Shown: one piece after another, positions 4,081-49,288 of the stretch
How the letters are laid out: each line of letters opens with the position of its first letter
Position numbering within the stretch: position 1 is the first letter of the stretch
Origin: Candidatus Beckwithbacteria bacterium
GTDB lineage: Bacteria; Patescibacteriota; Microgenomatia; UBA1400; UBA1449
Direction of reading: 5' to 3'
Length of the DNA: 64,000 nt
Assembly (NCBI GenBank): GCA_012797845.1
Contig: JAAZOH010000038.1
Coordinates: forward strand, 11,919-75,918
Program-made: the position numbers and the translations under genes
Notes under the pieces: model-generated
What the model saw: the letters and a program-made list of their open reading frames with translations, nothing else
Database searches by the model: none
What the model was told of the DNA's origin: nothing

Positions 4081-4099
4081 TAGCTGCCAGGTGCAGCTA
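4081..4099. promoter_or_regulatory. palindrome tagctgc-N5-gcagcta upstream of MSNEDL paralog 1
   Basis: 7-bp perfect inverted arms. The same element occurs at 6909-6929 before paralog 2. Confidence 0.5.
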
Positions 4100-6908: not shown

Positions 6909-6929
6909 TAGCTGCCAACTGTGCAGCTA
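6909..6929. promoter_or_regulatory. palindrome tagctgc-N7-gcagcta upstream of MSNEDL paralog 2
   Basis: Same inverted-repeat arms as 4081-4099, followed by a conserved tattttt...ATG..aatgaaga block. Confidence 0.5.
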
Positions 6930-8543: not shown

Positions 8544-8996
8544 ATCTTCTCATAAGGTTTTTGTCTAAAGCAGACATCATTTCGATGTCTGAATTGTCGT
8601 GCCATCATTTCCAATACCTGTTTAGGAAGCAAACACCGCAACCATTGTCCAATATGTTTATGGTCTAGACATCTCGATCTTACTATTCCTGGTGATAGAA
8701 AGTCTCGTTGTGGCTCAAAAATGAAACCAATAGGATTAGTATTTAAACATATTACCTATAATCCATTTACTGATAAGACAAGTGGTGAACTGATGATAGT
8801 ACATCTATGTCTAAACTGTGACAAAATCTCGACAAATAGAATTGCCGGAGATGATAATGCTCAAAGTATTATTCAACTACTAGATGAGCCAAAATCGCTA
8901 GATCCTACTTTAATTCATAGATTACATTGTTCAAACCTTACCCCACTTACCCGTCAAGATGAGCAACAAGTCTTGGCTTGTTTATTTGGTTATTGA
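8544..8996 (+). CDS. RNHCP domain protein; N-terminal part lacks a canonical start codon
   Basis: First ATG is at 8721. The in-frame upstream translation (no stop back to 8544) reads FRCLNC...ANHCPICLWSRHLD, which matches the RNHCP motif, but contains no ATG/GTG/TTG. Confidence 0.5.
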
Positions 8997-9055
8997 GGTT
9001 TTTTTATTGATTAATAAACTCAATATTATTTACAATTTTATTGTAAAATAGCTCT

Positions 9056-9715
9056 GTGAATTTTTTCTTGAAAAGCTTTCTATTTTTACTCCTGGGTTCT
9101 TTTTTATCTGTTTTAGTATTTATTTTGCTAAATAATGATATTTTTAGTGCAACCTTTGTTTTTGAAGGTAATAAAGAGCAATATCAGATAACAGATTTTT
9201 CTTTGGAGGATGCTCCAGCCGAATCATTGCGCGGAACTATTGCCAGTAGAAATGGGGAAATTTTGTGGCAATCCAGAATTGCTACACAGTCTTCAGTATT
9301 AGTAGGCGACAAAATACTTCAACAGGGAGAAATTTTAGAAACTGGGAAAGACGGAATAATTGAAGTCAAATTTGTTGATGCTGCCTTAGTTCATATGTTT
9401 GAGAATACTAAGGTTGAAATCGTTCAGACTTTGCCAGTCAATTTAGTTTTCAATCAATCTAGGGGTACAGTTACATATAAAAATTTGGGAGAAGCTCCGG
9501 TTTCGATTCGATCTATCAATCTGTTGGTAAATTTGACAAAAGGTTTGATAGATATTGATGTGGACGATCAAACGGGAGAAGTAAGCTTATCTTTAGTTGA
9601 AGGCAAGGCCAGGGTAGCATATAACAGTACGGATTTTGAAAGTAAGGTTTGGGATTTGGAAGCAGGAGACAGTTTTTTATATGACAGCAATGAAAGAGAA
9701 GGTTTTTTTGAATAA
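9056..9715 (+). CDS. membrane-anchored FecR-like domain protein (copy 1)
   Basis: GTG start, N-terminal TM, beta-rich FecR-like pattern. ~78% aa identity to 18478-19137. Confidence 0.55.
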   Translation: MNFFLKSFLFLLLGSFLSVLVFILLNNDIFSATFVFEGNKEQYQITDFSLEDAPAESLRGTIASRNGEILWQSRIATQSSVLVGDKILQQGEILETGKDGIIEVKFVDAALVHMFENTKVEIVQTLPVNLVFNQSRGTVTYKNLGEAPVSIRSINLLVNLTKGLIDIDVDDQTGEVSLSLVEGKARVAYNSTDFESKVWDLEAGDSFLYDSNEREGFFE

Positions 9716-10849
9716 TTACTTATAAGTTTTGACAGGTTCCAAGATAGTTTGTCCCTCATAACCAAGTGCCCAAAAAGCCATACCACCAAGCTTATATTTT
9801 TTAACAAGATCAATTTTTTCTTGCACGGCTTGAGCATCTGGATAAAAAATCTGGTGATAGGTTTTATACTCTTGATCGTAATAAATAAGGTATGATTCTT
9901 GAGAATTAGCCTCTATTTGCGCGCTGCAACTGGCACAACTAGCCAAAAATTCCTCTACCCTTTTATTACTAGCTGTAATGCCTGAGCCAGGCAAGGTGGC
10001 AGATCTAGGATAGTCAGTCAGGGTTTCCCATTCATAGCCGTATAAAGGAATGCCAAGAATAATTTTATTTTTAGGTAAAACCTCTAGTGCTTTTTGAATA
10101 CCGGTTTCAACATCAAACTCACTATCAATTCCGACTCCACCTACTGGTGCTACTGCTCCACTCACTTGTGAGCCAGGATAATGGTAATCATAAGTCATGA
10201 GGACAATATAGTCGACATACGGTTCAACTGCTTCAAGATTGATCAGTCTGCTTTTGATCAGATCTGTAGGACTGGCATCAATGGTCAGGGTTGTATTAAT
10301 CCGACTTTTGACTTCTTTAATAAAAGCAGTGAAATGTAGTCGGGCTGATTCTGAAGCATATAACACATTTTCGATATCAAGATTAAGATCAGTAAATCCA
10401 TATTGTTCCATGATTGGGTTAATCTGTGAAACTAAAGTTGCGGCGTGAGAAGCAGGTTCAGAGACTAATTCATTGATAGTATCTGGATCACCACTAAAAA
10501 TTAAAAGGGAGTTTTGTAAATTTTTGGAAGGAGTAAATTTCCCAGAATTTAGAGCTTGCCAGCCCGGTTCAGCTTCTCCTGGATTGGTATATTTTTGAAT
10601 CTTACCATCTCCTTCAACAGTCAGTCCAAAATAAGTAATATTGGTCAAATATTGGGAATAGTCTTTGTCAGTTTTACCTATAAACCAATATGGAAGAAAA
10701 CCGATAATATGTTGCTTATTTTGTTTTTGAAGAGGAGAAAGAATAATTGATTTGGGATTTTTATCAACGAGGTAATTTAATAAAAGCAACGTAAAGGTAA
10801 ATCCTAAAATCGTTACGAAGAAAAAAACCAGAATACTTTTTATTTTCAT
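9716..10849 (-). CDS. glycoside hydrolase family 18-like protein, membrane anchored (copy 1)
   Basis: N-terminal TM; DLNLDIE (DxxDxDxE-like), MTYDYHY and GGMAFWALGYE motifs of GH18. Confidence 0.6.
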   Translation of the reverse strand: MKIKSILVFFFVTILGFTFTLLLLNYLVDKNPKSIILSPLQKQNKQHIIGFLPYWFIGKTDKDYSQYLTNITYFGLTVEGDGKIQKYTNPGEAEPGWQALNSGKFTPSKNLQNSLLIFSGDPDTINELVSEPASHAATLVSQINPIMEQYGFTDLNLDIENVLYASESARLHFTAFIKEVKSRINTTLTIDASPTDLIKSRLINLEAVEPYVDYIVLMTYDYHYPGSQVSGAVAPVGGVGIDSEFDVETGIQKALEVLPKNKIILGIPLYGYEWETLTDYPRSATLPGSGITASNKRVEEFLASCASCSAQIEANSQESYLIYYDQEYKTYHQIFYPDAQAVQEKIDLVKKYKLGGMAFWALGYEGQTILEPVKTYK

Positions 10850-10946
10850 CTATTTTATTTTAACATGGCCACCTTTAGAAACTGTTTAATATAAAGTATC
10901 AGGAGAGTATTTAGAAAAATATTACAGTACTTATTAAACTCAAAAT

Positions 10947-18278: not shown

Positions 18279-18477
18279 AGTATTTATGACCTTTGATCAG
18301 CTCATGCTTTTATTGTTATTGTTCCTATGCAAAAACTCTTCATTGTCTTCTCTTAATATCGACCTGTTCTCGAGTTATTAAGTTTTAGATTGTCTGTGAA
18401 AATAATAATATTTTTAGAGATATTTTCATTAATTAACAAGCTCAATATTATTTATTATTATATTGTAAAATAGCCTT

Positions 18478-19137
18478 GTGAATTTTTTCCTAAAAGGCTT
18501 TCTATTTTTACTATTAGGTTCTTTTCTCTCAGTTTTAGTATTTATCTTACTAAATAATAATATTTTCAGTAAAACCTTTGTTTTTGAAGGCAATAAGCAG
18601 CAATATCAGCCAACAAACTTTTCTTTGGAAGATGCTCCAGTAGAATCGCTGCGAGGGACTATTGCCACTAGAAGCGGAGAGATTTTGTGGCAATCCAGAG
18701 TTGCGACAGAGTCTTCAACATTAGTTGATGACATACAGTTTCAGCAGGGAGAAATGGTAGAAACCAAGAAAAATGGGACAATTGAAGTCAAATTTACCGA
18801 TGCCGCACAGGTTGATATATTTGAAAATACTAAGGTTGAAATAGTCCAAACCTTACCGGTCAATTTGGTTTTTAACCAGTTCAAAGGCAAAGCTCAATAT
18901 AAAAATTTAGGAGTAGCTCCAGTTTCAGTCAGGTCTATGAATCTGTTGGTAAATTTAGTTGAAGGTTTAATGGACATCGATGTGGACGATCAAACTGGAG
19001 AAATCACTGTAACTTTAGATGAAGGACAAGCCAAAGTAGCGTATAACAGTGCAGAGTTTGAAAGTCAGATTTGGGATTTGGAAACAGGAGATATATTTAT
19101 CTATGACAGCAATGAAAGACAAGGTTTTTTTGAGTAA
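18478..19137 (+). CDS. membrane-anchored FecR-like domain protein (copy 2)
   Basis: Paralog of 9056-9715; GTG start. Confidence 0.55.
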   Translation: MNFFLKGFLFLLLGSFLSVLVFILLNNNIFSKTFVFEGNKQQYQPTNFSLEDAPVESLRGTIATRSGEILWQSRVATESSTLVDDIQFQQGEMVETKKNGTIEVKFTDAAQVDIFENTKVEIVQTLPVNLVFNQFKGKAQYKNLGVAPVSVRSMNLLVNLVEGLMDIDVDDQTGEITVTLDEGQAKVAYNSAEFESQIWDLETGDIFIYDSNERQGFFE

Positions 19138-20271
19138 TTACTTATAATTTTTAACCGGTTCTAAAATAGTATTTCCTTCATAGCCAAGGGCCCAGAAGGC
19201 CATACCACCCAGCTTATATTTTTCAACAAGATCAATTTTTTCTTGGATAGCTTGAGCATCCGGATAAAAAATTTGGTGATAGGTTTTATATGCTTGGTCA
19301 TAATAAATAAGGTATGATTCTTGGGAATTAGCTTCTATCTGGGCACTACAAGTGGCGCAACTGGCCAAAAACTCCTCTACCCTTTCATTACTAGCTGTGA
19401 TGCCTGAACTAGGAATGGTGGCTGATCTAGGATAGTCAGTTAGGGTTTCCCATTCATAACCATATAAAGGAATGCCAAGGATAATTTTATTTTTGGGGAT
19501 AACTTCTAGCGCTTTTTGGATACCAGTTTCAACATCAAACTCACTATCAATTCCAACTCCACCTACTGGGGCTACGGCGCCACTTACTTGTGAGCCAGGG
19601 TAATGATAATCATAAGTCATGAGGACAATATAATCGACATACGGTTCTACTGTTTCAAGATTGATCAGCCTACTTTTGATTAAATCTGTAGGGCTGGCAT
19701 CAATAGTTAGGGTTGTATTAATCCGACTTTTAAACTCTTTGACAAAGGCAGTGAAATTTAATCGAGCCGATTCTGAAGCATAAAAAACATTTTCAATATC
19801 AAGATTTAGATCAGTAAATCCATACTGTTTCATAATTGGATTAATTTCAGAAGCTAAAGTTGCAGCATGAGAAGCTGGCTCGGAAACTAATTCGTTAATA
19901 ACGTCCGGATCACCGCTAAAAATTAAAAGGGAGTTTTGTAGATTTTTGGAAGGAGTAAATTTACCGGAATTTAGAGCATGCCAACCCGGCTCAGCTTCAC
20001 CGGGATTAGTATATTTTTGAATACTACCATCAGAATTAACAGTTAATCCAAAATAAGTAATATTGGTCAAATACTCTCTATAATCTTTGTCAGTTTTATC
20101 AAGGAGCCAGTATGGTAGAAAACCAATAATATGCTGGGTGTTTTGTTTTTGAAGAGGTGAAAGAATAACTGATTGAGGATTTTTATCAACGAGATAATTG
20201 ACTAAAAAGAAAGTAATGGCAAATCCTACAATAGTTATAAAGGTAAAGATCAGGATGTTTTTTATATTCAC
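19138..20271 (-). CDS. glycoside hydrolase family 18-like protein (copy 2)
   Basis: Paralog of 9716-10849 with the same GH18 motifs. Confidence 0.6.
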   Translation of the reverse strand: MNIKNILIFTFITIVGFAITFFLVNYLVDKNPQSVILSPLQKQNTQHIIGFLPYWLLDKTDKDYREYLTNITYFGLTVNSDGSIQKYTNPGEAEPGWHALNSGKFTPSKNLQNSLLIFSGDPDVINELVSEPASHAATLASEINPIMKQYGFTDLNLDIENVFYASESARLNFTAFVKEFKSRINTTLTIDASPTDLIKSRLINLETVEPYVDYIVLMTYDYHYPGSQVSGAVAPVGGVGIDSEFDVETGIQKALEVIPKNKIILGIPLYGYEWETLTDYPRSATIPSSGITASNERVEEFLASCATCSAQIEANSQESYLIYYDQAYKTYHQIFYPDAQAIQEKIDLVEKYKLGGMAFWALGYEGNTILEPVKNYK

Positions 20272-20616
20272 CCACTCATTTTAACATGGCCTTTTTAAAA
20301 AGATATTAAATTTGGAACTTTTAAAGTTAAACATTAAAAACCCTTTTTGAGATATATGAAAATTATTCTTATGAAACAAATGCCGCAAATTCTAATGAGC
20401 AAAAAGGCCAGGGGGATTAAACTTTGTTTTAATAAGAATAGCTGGTTATAGCGATTATAACTAGAAAAATGGAAATTATAACTTTATGTAAAGATAATAA
20501 CGATATCTTATAAAGACTAAGAAGCCAATAATTTTTGGTTTAAAAAACTAACCCTAAAAATACAAATTCGGATGTAGCTACTTATTTAAGAATGGATAAA
20601 AATTCAGCTGCCATTT

Positions 20617-41332: not shown

Positions 41333-41854
41333 TTATTGATCTAAAAATTTTTGCAACTTTACAATTTTGGGAACAATCACCGCTTTGCAATAAGCTTGAT
41401 CAGGATGCTTTTCAAAGTAGTTGTGATGTTCTGCCTCAGCTCCGTAAAATATTTCTAAAGGTTTGATTTCAGTCACAATAGGCATGGTAAAGTGGGATGC
41501 CTGCTCTTTTTTGGCAGCCTCAGCTAACTCTTTTTGCCTTTGATTAGTCCATAAAATAATAGAACGGTATTGGGGACCGATATCATTACCTTGGCGGTTA
41601 AATGTGGTTGGGTCATGAATTTTCCAGAAAATATCCAAAAGCTGCTGGTAGCTGATTTTTGTAGGATCATATTCCAGTTCCACCACCTCGGTATGGCCGG
41701 TAGTGCCGGTACTAACCAGATCATAACTGGGTTCAGCAATGTTGCCGCCGGCATAACCGGGAGTGACTTTGATAATGCCAGGAACCATTTTAAAAGTTGC
41801 CTCACTGCACCAGAAGCAGCCAGCGCCGAAAACAGCTAGCTCAGTTTTTGCCAT
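41333..41854 (-). CDS. msrA: peptide methionine sulfoxide reductase MsrA
   Basis: GCFWC active-site motif. Confidence 0.85.
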   Translation of the reverse strand: MAKTELAVFGAGCFWCSEATFKMVPGIIKVTPGYAGGNIAEPSYDLVSTGTTGHTEVVELEYDPTKISYQQLLDIFWKIHDPTTFNRQGNDIGPQYRSIILWTNQRQKELAEAAKKEQASHFTMPIVTEIKPLEIFYGAEAEHHNYFEKHPDQAYCKAVIVPKIVKLQKFLDQ

Positions 41855-42222
41855 TACTTATCTCCTTTTGGTTGAAATTCTAATGAGATTGAATTGACAC
41901 AGTGTCTGGTGTTTTTGGAAGTTAATCCTTCACCGGTAAAAACATGGCCTAAATGAGCTCCACAGTTGGCACAAACTATTTCGGTTCTAACTCCATCAAA
42001 ATCCGGAACCTGCTTAACTGCTCCGGGAATTTCCTGGTCAAAGCTGGGCCAGCCGCATTGAGCATCAAACTTATCTTTGGAGCGGTACAAGGGTGTTTGG
42101 CAACGTTTACAGACATAGGCCCCTTCTTTCCAAAAATCATCATATATGCCGGTAAACGGTACTTCAGTTTCTTTATTTTCAATAACTTGCTTTTCTTCTG
42201 GTGTGAGCTGTTTAAAATTCAT
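41854..42222 (-). CDS. msrB: peptide methionine sulfoxide reductase MsrB
   Basis: CxxC...CxxC zinc site and HLGHVF motif. Confidence 0.85.
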   Translation of the reverse strand: MNFKQLTPEEKQVIENKETEVPFTGIYDDFWKEGAYVCKRCQTPLYRSKDKFDAQCGWPSFDQEIPGAVKQVPDFDGVRTEIVCANCGAHLGHVFTGEGLTSKNTRHCVNSISLEFQPKGDK

Positions 42223-43363: not shown

Positions 43364-44533
43364 ATGAAAGCTCACAAAAATATCATTCTACTTTCAATTT
43401 TTAATTTTCTACTGGGTTTTTATTTATATGGGGCAATCATTGTGATTTATTTTAGTCAGCTAACAGGTTCGTACGCTTTAGCGATGGGTTTATTTTCTAT
43501 TACCATGATTGGTGCGGCTGCTTTAGAAATTCCAACTGGTATATATTCTGATTTAATTGGCCGGCGCAAAACCGTTATTTTGGGAAGCTTTGCAATTTTA
43601 CTTTCTTCAATTTTTTATGCTTGGGGATTTTCTTATGCTGTATTGATAATCGGCGCTTTGTTTGAAGCTCTTTCACGAGCTTTTTTCAGTGGCAATAATG
43701 ATGCCCTGCTTTATGATAGTTTGGCAGCTAGTGGCAAGGAAAAAGATTATGATGAGTATCTGGGTAAAGTCAGCTCTACAGAACAAGCCGCTTTGGCAGT
43801 TAGTGCTGTGCTTGGTGGGATTATCGCTGCTATTTCTATGAAATTGGTTGTTTGGCTAGCTGTGATACCTAATATATTTTTAGTCGTTATTGCTTTTCAG
43901 CTAGTTGACATCAGACGGTACAAAATTGAATCTGGGAATATATTTAATCATCTCAAAGAAGCTTTGCTAGTTTTTAAAAAAAGTTATAAGCTGCGGCTTT
44001 TAAGCTTAGCTTCAATAATAGAATTTGCTTTTGGAGAAACAGGCTTCACCTTTAATCCAGTTTTTATAAACTCTCTCTGGCCATTGTGGGCTGTAGGAAT
44101 ATCAAGGGCTTTAAGTTTTGCAGGCGGATCAATCAGCTTCTTTTTTGCCGGTAAAATCATTAAAAAATTTAAAGCCTTACCAACTTTATTTGCCAACTCT
44201 TTAATTAGTAGAATTATCACCTCGTTAGCAATTTTAATTGCCAATGTTTTTTCACCAGCTTTAATGTCTATGACTTCCTTACTTTATGGTTCGAGCGAAG
44301 TAGCCAGTAATACTCTATTACAAAAAGAATTTACAGACAAACAACGAGCGACGCTTTCTTCCATTAACTCTTTATTAGGATCACTAGCTTTTGGAATCAT
44401 TTCAGTTTTAGTCGGATTGATAGCAGATAAGCTAAATCCTAGAAGTACACTATTAATATTACAAATATTTTTACTGATTCCAATGTTTATTTATTGGCGG
44501 ATTTTTAAGCATGATAAAAAAGATATACATTAA
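43364..44533 (+). CDS. MFS transporter
   Basis: 12 TM with MFS-like loop motifs. Confidence 0.55.
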   Translation: MKAHKNIILLSIFNFLLGFYLYGAIIVIYFSQLTGSYALAMGLFSITMIGAAALEIPTGIYSDLIGRRKTVILGSFAILLSSIFYAWGFSYAVLIIGALFEALSRAFFSGNNDALLYDSLAASGKEKDYDEYLGKVSSTEQAALAVSAVLGGIIAAISMKLVVWLAVIPNIFLVVIAFQLVDIRRYKIESGNIFNHLKEALLVFKKSYKLRLLSLASIIEFAFGETGFTFNPVFINSLWPLWAVGISRALSFAGGSISFFFAGKIIKKFKALPTLFANSLISRIITSLAILIANVFSPALMSMTSLLYGSSEVASNTLLQKEFTDKQRATLSSINSLLGSLAFGIISVLVGLIADKLNPRSTLLILQIFLLIPMFIYWRIFKHDKKDIH

Positions 44534-44638
44534 TTTTTTCTTCTTTGACTTGATTTTTTCTCAGTTTACAATACTTTTATGTCAAAAAATATTTACTTAG
44601 CTTATATTTTGGCTTTTTTAAAAAATTCCTGATTTTGG

Positions 44639-45748
44639 TTGGGAATTTGGGTTTTTTACTACTTACGATTTACCGATTATGCAGGCATTGGCTTAATTGA
44701 GACAGTTCTGATTCTAACGATGACAATAGCAGAAATTCCTACTGGAGCTATTGCAGACTTGTTGGGCAAAAAAATAACTTTAACTGTAGCATTTTTGCTC
44801 ATGGCTTTTGGTAATATTTTTATGGGTTTGACTCCTAATTTCCCAATATTAGTAATCAGCGTTTTTATAGCCGGACTTGGTGGTACTTTTGAATCAGGCA
44901 CCTCAGAAGCCTTGATTTATGATTCTTTACTAGAAACAAAAGAAGAACATACATTTGATAAAGTGATTGCTAATATTAAGTCTATTCACCTGCTGGCTCC
45001 AGCTGTGACTGGAATTATTGGAGGCTTTTTATACGCACTTAATTTCAGACTGCCAATGTTAGCTTCTGGCTTTACTTATGGAATTGCTTTTATTATAACT
45101 TTCTTTTTACACGAACCCAGTATTGATTCTGAAAAATTTTCTTGGAGAAATTATATATTACAAACAAAACAAGGCATAAAACAGCTAAGTCAAACTATTG
45201 AAACCAAAAAAATCACTATCTTTTTGCTCTCAGTTGGTTTAATTGTGGTGATTACCAGTGAAATGCTTAATGATTTTTTAGCAGTAGAATTTAGTTTTAC
45301 TCCTCAAGAGCTAGCCATTTTTTGGTCTATTTGTTATTTAGTTTCGGCTGTTATGTCACAACTGACACCAAAATTTATAAAACAATTTGGACTTAAAAAA
45401 ACTGTTTTTGGGTTGGGTATTATTATTGCAGTTAGCCTTATCGTTTCTCCTATAGCCGGACTCATTTTAGGAGGATTTACTTTGTTTGTTCGAAATGGCT
45501 TTGGAGCCATATTTGAAAATGCAAGTTCAATAACTATAAACAGATTTACCTTGTCAAAATATCGGGCCACAACTATTTCCACTTTTAATATGTTTAAAAA
45601 TATTCCGTATGTTTTAACAGCATATCTCTTTGGTAGTTTAGCTAATATTTATTCGGCAAAAACCAGTGCTCTTTTTTTAGGGATTTTATTGCTGACCTTC
45701 ATTCTATTGCAGATAAATAGCATAAAAAGATTGCGAAAACCAAGCTGA
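44639..45748 (+). CDS. MFS transporter (start probably upstream, non-ATG)
   Basis: Paralogous architecture to 43364-44533. Confidence 0.5.
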   Translation: MGIWVFYYLRFTDYAGIGLIETVLILTMTIAEIPTGAIADLLGKKITLTVAFLLMAFGNIFMGLTPNFPILVISVFIAGLGGTFESGTSEALIYDSLLETKEEHTFDKVIANIKSIHLLAPAVTGIIGGFLYALNFRLPMLASGFTYGIAFIITFFLHEPSIDSEKFSWRNYILQTKQGIKQLSQTIETKKITIFLLSVGLIVVITSEMLNDFLAVEFSFTPQELAIFWSICYLVSAVMSQLTPKFIKQFGLKKTVFGLGIIIAVSLIVSPIAGLILGGFTLFVRNGFGAIFENASSITINRFTLSKYRATTISTFNMFKNIPYVLTAYLFGSLANIYSAKTSALFLGILLLTFILLQINSIKRLRKPS

Positions 45749-45780
45749 TTATACTGGGATACAACCAGCTTGGTTATAAA

Positions 45781-46947
45781 TTAATCATCCCGAAGCGGAC
45801 TCCGCAAGTTTGGAACCAGTAGTACTATGGCTGGCAAAAGTGCTATCAAAACCAAAGTCAAGTTTAGCGACTTAGTAGCTAAAAACCCAACTATCGGATT
45901 GGCAATAGCTGTAGCCAGGCGGATGTACATGGATAAAACTGAGCGCATGGTAGCTCGATTAGCTGATGGGACTAGCTCATGGAAATGACTGGTAGCAAAG
46001 TACACTCTGGTCAAGCCAAAACTGCCAGCTAAGACCAAGAATAAGACTACTCCAATACTACCAGGTAACAAGCCTCCAGCTACAAATCCCAACATAACTA
46101 AAACAGCAGTTAACCATAGGTATTTACTGGCCGATCCTACCAACTTTTCTAAGGTAATAAAGTTGTAGGATAGCAGCATTTCAATAGCTACGGTTCCGGC
46201 ATGAAACAGACCAAAGTACTTGATTGGGATACCAATTTGGCTTAGCAATGGTTGGTACAGCCAAATGACAAAGTAAGCTGCAGCTGCCACTAACACTAGG
46301 TTTAAACTCAGCCGTCTTAACTTGCTGTGGCTGTTAAACAACCTGATGCTTTCAACTATAGTTTGCTTAGCCGATCTGATCTCTGATTGACCGTTCTTGT
46401 ACTCTGGTAACTTGACCATAACTAGCAAAGCCAAAAACCAGGCCGAAGCAGTAAAAAGCTGTGGCGCGTTTAAGCCAAATGACGAAGCTATTGGTCCGCC
46501 CAATATAGCTGCAAAACTGAGGGCAAACATAGAAATAGCTTGGACTTTGCCAGTGACTTGCTTCATTTGATCTTGATGTCCCTCAGCTTTTAAGGCTTCA
46601 TAGAGCCAAGCTTCATCAGCACCTGAAATGAGCGCCAATCCTAATGCTAAGGTGAACTCTGCCAACATAAATAGCCAAATATTGGGAAACAAGCTGTAGA
46701 TGGTCATGCCAATAGCAAATAAAGCTGATCCCAAAGTCATTGAGAATTTTCGGCCATAGCGGTCAGCCACAAAACCAGTTGGCACTTCCAAAATCACTAC
46801 CCAGATAGCAAACCAACTTTGCAGTAGCTGAATTTGGAATTGATTAATACCACCCCACTGCGTAAAAAACGGGATCAACACCGCACTCATAAAATGCAGT
46901 GAAGTCAAAAATCTGACTAGATAGTAAAGCTTAATTTGTCTAGACAT
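45781..46947 (-). CDS. MFS transporter
   Basis: Start set at MSRQIKL with AAAGGAGGA RBS. The longer ORF-track N-terminus is discounted. Confidence 0.6.
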   Translation of the reverse strand: MSRQIKLYYLVRFLTSLHFMSAVLIPFFTQWGGINQFQIQLLQSWFAIWVVILEVPTGFVADRYGRKFSMTLGSALFAIGMTIYSLFPNIWLFMLAEFTLALGLALISGADEAWLYEALKAEGHQDQMKQVTGKVQAISMFALSFAAILGGPIASSFGLNAPQLFTASAWFLALLVMVKLPEYKNGQSEIRSAKQTIVESIRLFNSHSKLRRLSLNLVLVAAAAYFVIWLYQPLLSQIGIPIKYFGLFHAGTVAIEMLLSYNFITLEKLVGSASKYLWLTAVLVMLGFVAGGLLPGSIGVVLFLVLAGSFGLTRVYFATSHFHELVPSANRATMRSVLSMYIRLATAIANPIVGFLATKSLNLTLVLIALLPAIVLLVPNLRSPLRDD

Positions 46948-47045
46948 AATTTCCTCCTTTGTGTAATATCTCTTAGCTTTCAAAGAGCTTGACAAAAAAT
47001 CAGATTCCCAGCTGATAATTTTGCCAAGCAAACCTCCAAACACAC

Positions 47046-47070
47046 TAAAAAAGCCTCCGGTTTGGAGGCT
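47046..47070 (-). terminator. intrinsic terminator hairpin (gcctcc-ggttt-ggaggc plus U-run) inside the MFS 5' leader
   Basis: 6-bp GC stem followed by TTTTTT on the minus strand, ~100 nt upstream of the MFS start. Confidence 0.55.
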
Positions 47071-47214
47071 TTGTTGATCAAACTATATTACGGTAATTTT
47101 TAATCAGTAGCCTCCTTGTGTTTTAGGTAATCAACACCAAACACCATACAAATAAGGGTGTTTTCTGAGCGATTGGTTTGATAAAGACTACGTTTGCCTA
47201 TCATATGACTAATT

Positions 47215-47242
47215 ATTATAATATAATTATAGGATAATGCAA
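47215..47242 (-). promoter_or_regulatory. sigma70-like promoter TTGCAT-N16-TATAAT driving the MFS leader
   Basis: Consensus -35 and -10 hexamers with a 16-nt spacer on the minus strand. Confidence 0.5.
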
Positions 47243-47452
47243 GAATACTTTATCATCCTGAACGAAGTTGAAGGATCTTTTAAATAAGATTTCTCGACAA
47301 GCTCAAAATGACAACGAAACTATATTTTTCATTTTACTTTGTTTTTAAATCTCTTGCCAAGTCTCAAATTGTCTTTTTTAATTACTTTTTATAATTATTT
47401 TGAAATTAGGCATATATTTGGTTATTAGCTATTTTGACACTATAATTAAGAT

Positions 47453-47923
47453 GTGATTTCAAGACAACATCTTCCTAGATACGAATTTACCCAAGAAGGT
47501 TTTGATAAGCTTTTGCTTGAGCAAGAGCAACTGACTCAAAACCGGGTTGGAGCAGTCAAAGATTTAGCTGAGGCTCGGGCTATGGGCGATCTATCAGAAA
47601 ATGGCTACTATAAAGCAGCTCGGGCCAAACTCTCCTCTATTGATTCGCGTTTAGGCCGGCTTAAACTCATGATCAAATATGCTGTGATCTTGGAAAGCAG
47701 CAAATCCGGGGCTGTTGATTTTGGTTGTAAAGTTACAGTGCAAGTTGGTTCCCTAAAGCGAGAATTTCAAATTGTGGGCAAAGAAGAATCAGATCCTTCA
47801 GCTGGGAAAATTTCTGGTCACTCACCGATTGGTCAAGCTTTGATGGGCAAGAAAAAAGGTGAGAAAGTTTTGGTACAAATTCCAGCCGGGGAAGTTGAGT
47901 ATGAGATTTTAGTTGTGGAGTAA
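47453..47923 (+). CDS. greA: transcription elongation factor GreA
   Basis: GDLSENGYYKAAR GreA signature; size 156 aa. Confidence 0.8.
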   Translation: MISRQHLPRYEFTQEGFDKLLLEQEQLTQNRVGAVKDLAEARAMGDLSENGYYKAARAKLSSIDSRLGRLKLMIKYAVILESSKSGAVDFGCKVTVQVGSLKREFQIVGKEESDPSAGKISGHSPIGQALMGKKKGEKVLVQIPAGEVEYEILVVE

Positions 47924-49288
47924 ACAACTAGCACAATCAAAAGCTAATTTGGCTGTTTTTCCTTCAAAATCTAACCCTGTTAATTCATTAATACTCCCAA
48001 TAATCCTCTTTCCATTTACTACAATTCCTAATTCTAAATTATAAGCATGACACATTGTTTGCATGCTTTGCATAAGGTTAATCATTTGTTCTCTTGTAAC
48101 TCCTCTAGGCGTGCGAGTATGTAAATTTAAATCAAGGTTTTGAGCTTCTTTAATAGGATGCCTGAGGGCTTGTGTTGTAAGAGAAATTTCTTGTAAGAAT
48201 CTGTTAAAAGCTGAAGGACGTGCTTGGGCAAAAGTTTTAATATCGGAATATGGTCCTTTTAAAGAATTCCATAAACAATATAGATCCTGCACTCCCAATA
48301 AAAGTATTGTATTCCAACTACTATAATCAATTGCTGTTGTTTGAGCTTCTAAATCATCAATAACATCGAGACATATAGAACAAAACACTTGCCTAATTCC
48401 AGCTTGGGAAAATAATTGAAGTTGTCTTGAAAGTGCTTCTGTAAGACATTCTTGTGTTGTTTGGCCTTGTGTATCAAATATATTATGATCTATATTGAGT
48501 CTTCCTTGATAAAATTTATATATTTTATGCATTAAACCAAGTTGAGCTTGATGAATGGTTGTGTCATTTACTTGTCCACGATTTTTAGCATCTTTGGCTA
48601 GCGAAAGAATATCAAGTTCTTCACCAGTTGATGCTGTTAATTTTCCAGTAATAATTTGTTGAATCAATTCTTGATTTATTCCTATAACACCAATAGCTCC
48701 AATACCCAAAGGATCTAATAATATATTTAGAAAATTACTTTTATCTGGTAATGTATTTCCTATTGGGATGTAAAAATCTGGGTGTCTATCAAAAACCAAC
48801 CAACCAACTTGTCCAAGGTCAACGCCTGCTTGTTCTAAAGTATGGGCTAAGTAAGCATCATGACCATGATTTGAAGTTATAAAACACACACTTCTGTCTG
48901 AATTTGTATCCAAGACATCAGCGTAAAAAGTTGATAAACCTATCTCATTAACATTGGCAGGATAATTTCCACCTATGAGATTAATAGCACTATCTAAACC
49001 GTCTGGGGCTTTTTTAAGACCTTTAACAATTCTAATAATTTGAGATTTATCAAGTTGGGAACATAGATTAGTTTCTTCCAAAACAAGAGTAATCCAGCGT
49101 GAATCTTGTGTTGTGCATTCTTTTCTACATGCCTGAATTAAACCTAGATTTCCTCTAAACAAAGAAGGATTAAATACCTTTATAAGCTCTAATATAGGTA
49201 AAACGTCAGTTGCATCCCCTTCTAATCGAGGAGTAATTATAATTTCAGAATGTGGTCTTAAAGTCTCTCCTAATTCTCTATTTTTCAT
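47909..49288 (-). CDS. hypothetical protein (possible arginase/deacetylase-like fold)
   Basis: VFDRHPDF and CSICLDVIDD resemble ureohydrolase metal-binding motifs. Weak assignment. Confidence 0.3.
   Translation of the reverse strand: MKNRELGETLRPHSEIIITPRLEGDATDVLPILELIKVFNPSLFRGNLGLIQACRKECTTQDSRWITLVLEETNLCSQLDKSQIIRIVKGLKKAPDGLDSAINLIGGNYPANVNEIGLSTFYADVLDTNSDRSVCFITSNHGHDAYLAHTLEQAGVDLGQVGWLVFDRHPDFYIPIGNTLPDKSNFLNILLDPLGIGAIGVIGINQELIQQIITGKLTASTGEELDILSLAKDAKNRGQVNDTTIHQAQLGLMHKIYKFYQGRLNIDHNIFDTQGQTTQECLTEALSRQLQLFSQAGIRQVFCSICLDVIDDLEAQTTAIDYSSWNTILLLGVQDLYCLWNSLKGPYSDIKTFAQARPSAFNRFLQEISLTTQALRHPIKEAQNLDLNLHTRTPRGVTREQMINLMQSMQTMCHAYNLELGIVVNGKRIIGSINELTGLDFEGKTAKLAFDCASCLLHN

Follow-up and report, generated by a model that had tools for sequence, protein, structure and literature searches.

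A putative ribosome-mediated attenuator with a leaderless leader peptide upstream of an MFS transporter gene in Candidatus Beckwithbacteria

Why should an intrinsic terminator stand between a promoter-like sequence and the start codon of a transporter gene? The question is raised by contig JAAZOH010000038.1 of Candidatus Beckwithbacteria, where a divergent intergenic space separates greA (47453-47923, plus strand) from an MFS gene on the minus strand (Table 1). All coordinates refer to the window, which is the whole 64-kb stretch of DNA that was analyzed. The nearest database matches of the two products were 65% (GreA) and 48% (MFS) identical, an exact-sequence look-up of the MFS protein gave no record, and no close relative of the source genome was found in the databases. 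The terminator as the tail of an upstream gene was ruled out, because the neighboring greA is divergent. The original prediction had listed the minus-strand elements of a regulatory leader in this space; every part was found where it had been placed, but some of the descriptions had to be corrected. In our view, the leader is likely to be a ribosome-mediated transcription attenuator that has a leaderless leader peptide and controls the MFS gene.

The leader and its competing folds

The two promoter hexamers and the 16-nt spacer of the original prediction are present. However, the -35-like element matches TTGACA at just 3/6 positions, so the promoter cannot be called consensus. The TTGCAT/TATAAT promoter was not listed by a promoter scan of the region, and the motif alone is not beyond chance, since each strand of the 64-kb window contains 38 copies of TATAAT. 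The position of the -10 box implies that transcription may start at about 47208-47205, which would make the leader ORF leaderless or nearly so. This 34-amino-acid ORF, predicted to lack a Shine-Dalgarno (SD) sequence, was recovered as such, and the lack of an SD would be explained by leaderless translation, given the -10 box directly upstream of the ATG. Leaderless starts look common across the source genome. A 33-codon ORF with a TTG start (47081-46980), which spans the terminator, was considered and rejected, having no counterpart at other loci.

Table 1. Features of the MFS gene and its leader, in the order of transcription (window coordinates)
Feature	Sequence	Position	Strand	Remarks
-35-like hexamer	TTGCAT	47237..47242	-	Read directly; 3/6 positions match TTGACA; 16-nt spacer to -10
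-10 box	TATAAT	47215..47220	-	10 nt upstream of the leader ATG
Leader ORF	MIGKRSLYQTNRSENTLICMVFGVDYLKHKEATD	47100..47204	-	ATG at 47204; 34 codons; stop TAA at 47102-47100
R1	GTAGTCTTT	47183..47191	-	Pairs with R2 in the full-leader MFE fold; covers leader codons 5-8
Internal in-frame Met codon, M20		47145..47147	-	32 nt upstream of R2
R2	AAGGAGGCTAC	47107..47117	-	5' strand of the antiterminator; core GGAGGCT (47115-47109) within the last codons of the ORF
AAGGAGG element	AAGGAGG	47111..47117	-	5' strand of the antiterminator
Linker hairpin	TGATTAAA...TTTGATCA	47075..47106	-	Enclosed by the antiterminator helix (folding)
R3	AAAGCCTCC	47064..47072	-	5' arm of the terminator; able to pair with R2 or R4
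R4	GGAGGCTTT + T6	47047..47058	-	3' arm of the terminator; T run ends at 47047
R5	GTTTGGAGGTTT	47030..47041	-	Third GGAGG copy, just past the T run; MFE fold
Post-terminator hairpin	Loop CTGGGAA	46987..47029	-	MFE fold; loop common to L166
MFS Shine-Dalgarno	AAAGGAGGAA	46951..46960	-	Unpaired in the full-length fold; read directly
MFS gene (predicted to be regulated)		45781..46947	-	388 aa; PF07690

The terminator corresponds to the hairpin AAAGCCTCC-AAACC-GGAGGCTTT (47072-47047), which was scanned as a 9-bp GC-rich stem followed by T6. Both the strong hairpin and the U6 tract of the original prediction were confirmed, but its "ggttt" loop turned out to be the plus-strand reading of the loop. 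The hairpin folds with -14.3 kcal/mol (z = -4.9), and none of 200 shuffles was as good. Strong or canonical intrinsic terminators are rare in the window, and the minus strand holds no other GC-rich hairpin and T run of comparable quality.

The AAGGAGG element noted originally is also in place. We have rejected it as a ribosome binding site, as there is no start codon 4-12 nt downstream. It belongs to R2, which is a copy of the 3' arm of the terminator and ends 6 nt before the leader stop codon. The original prediction had proposed to look for an antiterminator competing for the 5' half of the terminator, and was to be given up if nothing competed with it and Rfam gave no match. Such a structure exists: with R1 removed and R4 absent, R2:R3 folds with -17.2 kcal/mol (z = -4.7), vs. 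-14.3 kcal/mol for the terminator, and the R2-R3 complement of the window reached p = 0.037 against shuffled sequences. The 161-nt whole leader folds as R1:R2 plus terminator (z = -2.6, 0/200 shuffles as good). R1 is thus a candidate anti-antiterminator; its role in the window is uncertain, because the R1:R2 helix is not unusually stable there (z = -0.65) and the antiterminator is the thermodynamically favored fold even when no ribosome is present. In the MFE fold, R5 can pair with R3 in the read-through RNA, and R5-like copies are found in three of the leaders described below (L161, L166, and L084).

These elements suggest the following mechanism, in which the direction of the logic is what we infer from them. 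Transcription would begin a few bases before the ATG at 47204, and the 34-codon ORF would be translated leaderless or nearly so. Four segments would then be in play, with R3:R4 as terminator, R2:R3 as antiterminator, and R1:R2 as a pairing able to sequester R2. During smooth translation to the stop codon, the ribosome would cover R2, as expected from the 6 nt between them, or sit between R2 and R3. With R2 blocked in this way, R3:R4 would form and transcription would end at about 47047 (OFF). A ribosome held up before it has translated two thirds of the ORF would instead occupy or disrupt R1 and leave R2 free as R3 emerges. R2:R3 would then form, no terminator would arise, and RNA polymerase would enter the MFS gene (ON).

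Conservation and covariation at 15 loci

The same layout, including the antiterminator strand at the 3' end of the ORF, was found in 14 further leaders (L161, L166, L084, L004, L018, L001, L081, L085, L095, L054, L162, L163, L172, and L173) from other uncultured bacteria, although the MFS homologs that they precede have an identity of just 32-59%. A terminator is present in all 15 leaders and a leader ORF of 20-36 codons in 14 of them; the exception is the L163/L164 leader, where no ORF is present although R1, the central hairpin, R2, and the terminator are all retained. Terminators were called by a strict stem and T-run rule, an energy-based detector having been dropped as too permissive (30 sense vs. 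22 antisense calls of 48). The L161 terminator, in which G-U pairs prolong the stem into the T run and which the strict rule missed for this reason, was checked by hand. Leader type follows the MFS tree, with the window clustering with L161 and L166, and about half of the same-clade homologs have no leader.

The ORF and its placement recur far more often than expected. An ATG ORF of at least 20 codons that ends 15-40 nt before the terminator is present in 12 of the first 13 leaders (shuffle null 0.095, P = 6e-12), and P becomes 8e-19 when an adjacent -10 box is also required, the ORF and geometry criteria having been set post hoc, after the data were seen. In 13 of the 14 ORF-bearing leaders, the leader ATG is preceded at 6-10 nt by a -10-like box, eight times with an extended TGn. 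In L173, an SD-like AGGAA takes the place of the predicted leaderless start, and the source annotation calls this ORF a gene. The distance from stop codon to terminator was 21-33 nt in all 12 leaders measured. The peptides themselves can hardly be aligned between loci.

The pairings are conserved in spite of different sequences. The exact complement of R2 to R3 exceeded that of dinucleotide shuffles in 12/12 leaders tested (p <0.003 to 0.05; Fisher combined 5e-12). For comparison, terminators upstream of distant MFS homologs (<31% identity) had no significant complement in five of six cases (p 0.24-0.97), and L134 from this set was borderline (p 0.06). R2/R3/R4 come in five unrelated sequence types (GGAGGCT, GCTGGTT, CCGAGAT, GGAGTG, and TGGCTCG), across which R2:R3 is 94% paired, with compensatory changes at 8/8 pairs, and R3:R4 is 98% paired. 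The covariation score observed for R2:R3 and R3:R4 was reached by 0/500 shuffles; the R2 blocks used here were picked for best pairing, so that the dinucleotide-shuffle test of R2 is the independent one. Pairs were counted in fixed blocks joined by artificial CACACACACA spacers, because MAFFT alignments, whether of whole leaders or of R2-to-terminator segments, misregistered the two main sequence types structurally. When the first 30 nt were masked and R4 was absent, R3 paired with R2 in 13/13 leaders, and most other leaders have a counterpart of R1:R2 in their MFE fold.

The competing fold and the 14 other loci supported the original view that this is a regulatory leader in which promoter and start codon are separated by a terminator. 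Among the types it had offered (riboswitch, T-box-like leader, ribosome-mediated attenuator), the last was singled out by the conserved ORF, its register with the antiterminator, the terminator, and the covarying pairs. We favor an attenuator over a riboswitch or T-box because ORF, geometry, and terminator are kept while the paired sequences covary. The leader combines what defines an attenuator, i.e., a leader ORF, an intervening intrinsic terminator, a mutually exclusive antiterminator, and the stop-codon geometry. The regulatory codon run that marks the amino-acid-operon subtype was found in none of the leader ORFs.

Alternative readings and candidate signals

A ligand (as in a riboswitch), a protein, or a tRNA might bind the leader RNA directly, with the ORF being incidental. 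Such an arrangement would suit the L163/L164 leader, in which the RNA structure persists without an ORF, and the central hairpin, which is kept with different sequences in many leaders. However, the Rfam scan of the leader called for by the original prediction found nothing: Rfam 15 at gathering thresholds gave no match in the whole window or at 12 leader loci. When 46800-48000 was scanned permissively, the only matches were sub-threshold ones to the terminator hairpin itself. The Phe_leader model (RF01859), for instance, scored 30.1 bits vs. a gathering threshold of 55, with the terminator hairpin alone aligned and 69 model positions skipped. There was no match to the T-box family at the gathering threshold or at E <= 10, and a leader of ~160 nt with an ORF throughout is unlike a T-box. 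Leader alignments across the five sequence types contained no conserved unpaired core. These results speak against the riboswitch and T-box-like options. Direct binding would also leave the ORF statistics, the adjacency of -10 box and ATG, the stop placement, and the frame bias of ATGs (see below) unaccounted for, and we regard it as quite unlikely.

Promoter, ORF, and terminator would also make up a complete small transcription unit, which could be an independent small gene or sRNA with its own terminator. The MFS gene would then have a separate promoter, and the terminator would merely insulate it. In the window, the MFS ATG at 46947 lies 102 nt past the terminator stem, a gap in principle sufficient for a promoter, yet the promoter scan found no promoter-like site on the minus strand between the two (47046-46948). 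In the group-A loci, only 6-41 nt separate the terminator from the MFS start, so that a promoter would hardly fit, if at all. Moreover, the unit is tied to homologous MFS genes at 15 loci of different lineages, the duplicated R2 strand would have no purpose despite being significant and covarying, and the peptides are not conserved as those of a functional small protein would be. Such independence is therefore highly improbable.

If the leader acts as an attenuator, what would it sense? Two possibilities come first: translation may be slowed, either generally or by a drug, or the supply of Met-tRNA may be limiting. The transporter itself gives few hints. It is only a distant match to the Tet(40), TetA(P), and HP1165 efflux models, its best NCBIfam scores being 46.5 bits for Tet(40) (cut-off 800) and 40.8 bits for TetA(P) (cut-off 750). 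Since these scores are far under the cut-offs, assigning a substrate is unjustified; membership in the Tet(40), TetA(P), or Mef efflux families was not found, and the kinship is a distant MFS one. Solved structures likewise gave only distant MFS matches.

A response to slowed translation, as in antibiotic-inducible leaders, would make the MFS protein an efflux pump. The leader peptides are diverse and free of an amino-acid run, which is typical of drug-responsive leaders. The top NCBIfam models of the MFS protein are tetracycline efflux models, PF05977 is present in many of its homologs, and precedents exist in mef(E)/mel (PMC4335068) and bmrB-bmrCD (PMC4191407). Set against this are the low scores just given, the lack of a recognizable known arrest motif in the peptides, an enrichment of Met that would be left unexplained, and a spread of the family in host-dependent lineages that equally suits a nutrient importer. 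We hold this reading to be possible, but tentatively so.

That enrichment leads to the other candidate. Among the amino acids of the leader peptides, only Met is strongly enriched (17 observed vs. 6.7 expected, z = 4.2); no support was found for an enrichment of Cys (12 vs. 13.5). All 14 leader ORFs contain internal in-frame Met codons, one to three scattered per leader and 5.4% of codons overall. Internal ATGs in these ORFs are distributed over the frames as 22 in frame and 3 and 0 out of frame (P = 2e-8). The attenuator may accordingly sense charged Met-tRNA, with a pause at a Met codon within the first two thirds of the ORF freeing R2 and inducing the transporter under methionine shortage, and the MFS protein may import methionine or a related compound. 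R2 is preceded by a Met codon at a distance of 29-41 nt in 10/12 of the leaders found first. Judging from the folds, R1 would be hidden in several group-A leaders under a ribosome whose A site holds that codon. Going by record titles, the carriers of this MFS family are CPR bacteria, DPANN archaea, and low-GC Gammaproteobacteria MAGs, and organisms of these types are often auxotrophs.

Several observations count against methionine as the signal. Most leaders have no more than one or two Met codons, none has them in a run, and no fixed place in the peptide is reserved for them. In the group-B leaders, to which that of the window belongs, the predicted R1 would lie outside a ribosome positioned at the Met codon. 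Out-of-frame ATGs are depleted relative to the ~6.6 expected per frame, a pattern consistent with ATG being selected for its capacity to start translation and not for a sensing role. Upstream of 40 homologs without a leader, the search for riboswitches and T-boxes, methionine-related ones among them, returned only tRNAs; gene neighborhoods show no consistent link to methionine, and our literature search gave no Met-codon attenuator. We thus regard the sensing of Met-tRNA as doubtful. The full proposal of a methionine-sensing leaderless attenuator, in which this MFS clade would take up methionine or a sulfur metabolite related to it, seems rather unlikely.

Relation to known systems and implications

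The leader resembles the E. coli trpL, hisL, and pheL attenuators (Rfam Trp/His/Phe/Leu/Thr leaders) in its promoter, short ORF, 1:2/2:3/3:4 pairings, and terminator, and in a stop codon placed so that the terminating ribosome masks segment 2. It differs from them in that it has no run of codons for a single amino acid, its ORF lacks an SD and is predicted to start at or beside the 5' end, its target is a transporter instead of a biosynthetic operon, and no Rfam leader model matches it.

It also resembles the leaders of mef(E)/mel (PMC4335068) and bmrB-bmrCD (PMC4191407). These share with it a short peptide free of runs, a terminator with an anti-attenuator, and a drug-transporter-like gene; mef(E) encodes a macrolide efflux pump (PMC4335068), and its leader peptide Mef(E)L has 8 aa, vs. 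20-36 aa for the peptides described here. The present family has no recognizable arrest motif such as MRLR, its translation start is predicted to be leaderless, and the MFS protein of the window is only distantly similar to drug transporters.

Leaderless peptides have been proposed elsewhere, with 14 predicted leaderless leader peptides in Deinococcus deserti (PMC4007540) and polycysteine leaderless sORFs in mycobacteria (bioRxiv 10.1101/834739). As proposed here, those small ORFs act in cis on a downstream gene. They are, however, rich in the cognate amino acid (e.g., Cys) and lie upstream of tRNA synthetase or biosynthesis genes, whereas the present family has peptides of mixed composition in which Met is over-represented, an MFS target, and hosts among CPR bacteria and Gammaproteobacteria MAGs. 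In our literature search, no leader-peptide attenuator of the present type was found described in CPR bacteria. The attenuator is of a known kind and, as far as we could find, undescribed in these bacteria.

To our knowledge, gene regulation in Candidate Phyla Radiation (CPR) bacteria is almost unexplored, the organisms being uncultured. A conserved leader-peptide attenuator would imply that they use intrinsic terminators, that their transcription and translation are coupled, and that leaderless messages are translated for the sake of regulation. If methionine sensing were true, the leader would be the first of the leader-peptide attenuators to respond to Met codons and would provide direct genomic evidence that transcription-translation coupling serves gene control in CPR bacteria; the surplus of Met codons in frame is a clue to the signal that can be put to the test. 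With 15 leaders in five covarying sequence types, there is sufficient material for a covariance model from which wider searches could start. An uncharacterized transporter family of several reduced-genome lineages would in this way be tied to a translational signal, and the inducers of read-through may offer a route to its substrate.

The terminator and its competing fold

The MFS transporter gene is preceded by a leader in which the original prediction had seen a candidate riboswitch, T-box-like leader or ribosome-mediated attenuator. We have read the sequence directly, and all coordinates then proposed were correct on the minus strand. The terminator indeed lies between the promoter and the MFS start, with a 9-bp stem located 102 nt before the RBS/ATG region. 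The promoter did not deserve the label "consensus": its -35 element shares only 3 of 6 positions with TTGACA, the TTGCAT/TATAAT pair was absent from the output of the promoter scan of the window, and TATAAT occurs 38 times per strand in these 64 kb (GC content 34.6%). The 5' neighbour of the leader is the divergent greA gene and no co-directional gene is found there, which rules out that the terminator is that of an upstream gene. A plus-strand TTGCCT-17-TATAAT site overlaps the leader start and faces greA, ~230 nt away; it could be a second, divergent promoter, or the AT-rich palindromic sequence there may match by chance.

Leader elements and other features of the window
Feature	Position	Strand	Basis or remark
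-35-like TTGCAT	47242-47237	minus	read from sequence; 16-nt spacer to -10
-10 box TATAAT	47220-47215	minus	read from sequence; 10 nt before leader ATG
Leader ORF, 34 codons, MIGKRSLYQTNRSENTLICMVFGVDYLKHKEATD	ATG 47204 to TAA 47102-47100	minus	read from sequence and translation
R1, GUAGUCUUU	47191-47183	minus	codons 5-8 of leader ORF
Internal Met codon (M20) of leader ORF	47147-47145	minus	
GGAGGCT copy (core of R2)	47115-47109	minus	6 nt before leader stop codon
Terminator hairpin AAAGCCTCC-AAACC-GGAGGCTTT and T run ending 47047	47072-47047	minus	scan: 9-bp stem
Third GGAGG-like copy	47041-47030	minus	just 3' of T run
Post-terminator hairpin, loop CUGGGAA	47029-46987	minus	
MFS RBS AAAGGAGGAA	46960-46951	minus	102 nt past terminator; ATG 46947 next
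MFS transporter, 388 aa	ATG 46947	minus	gene call and domain assignment
Three adjoining MFS genes	43364-46947		two plus, regulated one minus
TTGCCT-17-TATAAT	47194-47222	plus	10/12 matches
greA -10 box and GTG start	47441-47455	plus	GTG 6 nt after TATAAT, no SD
greA	47453-47923	plus	
459-aa ORF convergent with greA	47909-49288	minus	no Pfam or NCBIfam match
Overlap of greA and 459-aa ORF 3' ends	47909-47923		15 nt
MsrB- and MsrA-like ORFs	41333-42222	minus	recognised from sequence only
Hairpins TAGCTGC...GCAGCTA and T run	4081-4099, 6909-6929	plus	
Direct segmental duplication	8995-10870, 18417-20291		1.88 kb, 83.6% identity

The terminator hairpin has a folding energy of -14.3 kcal/mol (z = -4.9 against shuffles). 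In a strict scan of the 64-kb window, it was the only GC-rich stem with a T run of such quality on the minus strand, strong intrinsic terminators being scarce in this Beckwithbacteria sequence. The GGAGGCT of its 3' arm (R4) recurs inside the leader ORF, in a segment that we call R2. When the 5' end of the leader and the terminator 3' arm were left out of the folding, R2 paired with the terminator 5' arm (R3) at -17.2 kcal/mol (z = -4.7), enclosing a linker hairpin; a competitor of the terminator, whose absence would have counted against the original prediction, was thus found. The minimum free energy fold of the complete leader (-38.5 kcal/mol, z = -2.6) combined the terminator with R2 paired to the upstream segment R1. 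The third GGAGG-like copy, a trait of GGAGG-type leaders also present at L161, L166 and L084 (loci encoding MFS homologs), would be able to pair with the terminator 5' arm in read-through RNA, and the post-terminator hairpin is common to the window and L166. The full-length fold left the MFS RBS unpaired.

The Rfam check gave no support to the riboswitch and T-box readings. Rfam 15 had no match at gathering thresholds in the whole window, and a permissive scan returned sub-threshold matches to the terminator hairpin only, with no T-box or riboswitch signal. The best of these was Phe_leader (30 bits vs 55, with 69 model positions skipped).

Elsewhere in the window, an extended -10 (TGATACAAT / TGATATAAT) precedes each of the two TAGCTGC hairpins by ~30-35 nt, and ~12 nt after each hairpin comes the ATG of one of two paralogous ~240-aa ORFs without a Pfam match; in this promoter-hairpin-gene arrangement the hairpin may stabilise the 5' end or act as a further attenuator. 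Both copies of the duplication contain, on the plus strand, a 219-aa ORF that had no Pfam match and, on the minus strand, a 377-aa GH18 (chitinase-like) ORF. No terminator was evident between greA and the convergent 459-aa ORF.

Leaders of the same layout at homologous loci

The nearest relatives found in the database search were 48% (MFS) and 65% (GreA) identical, and no close genome relatives were available. The names of identical database proteins assign the window to Candidatus Beckwithbacteria, a CPR/Microgenomates lineage. We have compared loci of MFS homologs, 173 in total: 80 loci from species-representative genomes, 80 from metagenomes and 13 obtained by exact protein look-ups. Reading of the upstream regions together with an automated screen identified 14 further leaders of the same layout (L161, L166, L084, L004, L018, L001, L081, L085, L095, L054, L162, L163, L172 and L173; L164 duplicates L163 and was counted once), which by their record titles came from Patescibacteria MAGs, Gammaproteobacteria MAGs and unbinned metagenome contigs. 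They have a -10-like box 6-10 nt 5' of the leader ATG (8 with extended TGn), a 20-36-codon ORF with a copy of the terminator 3' arm at or near its 3' end, and the terminator 21-33 nt after the stop codon (12 ORF-bearing leaders measured) and 6-123 nt before the MFS start. L173 and L163 are informative exceptions: in the former an SD-like AGGAA replaces the leaderless start, and the source pipeline had annotated its ORF as a gene of 33 aa; the latter keeps the RNA elements and lacks the ORF. Among all 173 loci, the signature patterns of the two main types matched at these leaders alone. A tRNA gene lies ~40 nt upstream of the leader -10 box at the Patescibacteria locus L054 (2201-2274), and tRNAs also occur near the MFS genes of L089 and L018.

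The longest exact R3 complement in the upstream 130 nt exceeded that of dinucleotide-preserving shuffles in 12/12 leaders (p <0.003 to 0.05; Fisher combined, 5e-12). Five of six terminators before distant MFS homologs (<31% identity) had no such complement (p 0.24-0.97) and the sixth, at L134, was borderline (p 0.06); terminators of this set are presumably of the ordinary kind. In 12 of 13 leaders, vs 0.095 expected from shuffles, there was an ORF that starts with ATG, has at least 20 codons and stops 15-40 nt short of the terminator (P = 6e-12, or 8e-19 when a -10 box was required before the ATG); the criteria were fixed after data inspection, so the exact P values are to be discounted, the effect being large.

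The R2/R3/R4 elements recur in five unrelated sequence types (GGAGGCT/AGCCTCC, GCTGGTT/AACCAGC, CCGAGAT/ATCTCGG, GGAGTG/CACTCC and TGGCTC/GAGCCA). In a block alignment, R2:R3 was 94% paired with compensatory changes at 8/8 pairs, and R3:R4 was 98% paired. None of 500 shuffles reached the covariation score of either pairing, and slid controls collapsed; R2 blocks had been picked for best pairing, the shuffle test of the exact R3 complement being the independent one. With the first 30 nt masked and R4 absent, R3 paired with R2 in 13/13 leaders, and in most full-length folds R2 was held by an upstream R1.

Probable translation-dependent attenuation and its candidate signals

A ribosome-mediated transcription attenuator is defined by just this set of features, and the leader is probably a terminator/antiterminator device dependent on leader translation. 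The regulatory reading of the original prediction was supported in its ribosome-mediated form, on the comparative ORF, terminator and antiterminator data, and found no support for the riboswitch and the T-box, which gave no signal in the Rfam scans. From the transcription start that we infer, initiation would be leaderless, which would explain why the ORF has no SD; termination in vivo and translation of the ORF are likewise steps of the model. A ribosome reaching the stop codon would cover R2 or sit between R2 and R3, letting the terminator form. If it were delayed early in the ORF, R2 would be free to capture R3 and the polymerase would read into the transporter gene. At group-A loci (the window belongs to group B) the terminator is 6-41 nt from the MFS start, so there the MFS gene would be expressed only by read-through; in the window, the promoter scan found no promoter-like site between terminator and MFS gene.

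Besides greA, at least 13 other ORFs of the window (raw count) lack an SD and start 5-8 nt after a -10-like box, which points to frequent leaderless mRNAs in this genome. Leaderless leader peptides have precedents in Deinococcus deserti (PMC4007540) and mycobacteria (bioRxiv 10.1101/834739).

What delays the ribosome may be considered from the leader peptides, which are barely alignable and in which, unlike in trp or his leaders, no amino acid forms a run. Met is their sole strongly enriched residue (z = 4.2; 5.4% of codons), the composition test giving no Cys enrichment. Of the ATG triplets inside the ORF bodies, 22 were in frame and the two other frames had 3 and 0 (P = 2e-8, window plus 13 loci). 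In 10 of the first 12 leaders, R2 follows a Met codon at a distance of 29-41 nt. Sensing of Met-tRNA fits these facts, with reasonable geometry in several group-A leaders, but the window is a poorer fit, since M20 is placed where a ribosome would leave R1 uncovered. Selection acting on ATGs because they could serve as start codons of an SD-independent leader fits as well and would also account for the depletion of out-of-frame ATGs. Neither is a full explanation of the pattern.

Alternatively, the leader may report that translation is slowed, in general or by antibiotics, as described for the leaders of mef(E)/mel (PMC4335068) and bmrCD (PMC4191407). The best NCBIfam matches of the MFS protein are tetracycline-efflux models; at ~46 bits they are far below the cut-offs of 750-800, so no substrate can be assigned. 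A solved-structure search gave distant MFS matches only, and at 40 homolog loci without the leader there was no riboswitch hinting at a substrate.

Inheritance and place of the leader family

Genes with a leader were concentrated in one large clade of a neighbour-joining tree (61 homologs), mixed with genes whose loci have none; the window gene clustered with L161 and L166, all with the GGAGG-type leader. Leader and MFS gene appear to have been inherited together, with frequent loss. The leaders of L004 and L018, outside the main clade and with their own sequence types, are possibly of independent origin. The MFS gene and its leader have a GC content of 0.40-0.45 vs 0.27-0.35 for the two adjacent MFS paralogs, which would fit their joint acquisition. 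Of the three adjoining genes only the last has a leader, and its GC is ~10 points above that of its neighbours. Close MFS homologs with 31-40% identity (loci including L005-L008, L013, L014, L024 and L034) are encoded in archaeal MAGs, DPANN among them, in CPR bacteria and in low-GC Gammaproteobacteria MAGs. The leader was absent from all archaeal copies examined. The distribution of the MFS family hints at horizontal spread among reduced-genome lineages.

Literature searches found no earlier description of this leader family, which has no Rfam model. Functionally it falls within the well-known class of leader-peptide attenuators and was previously uncatalogued; it has a predicted leaderless uORF and occurs in CPR bacteria.
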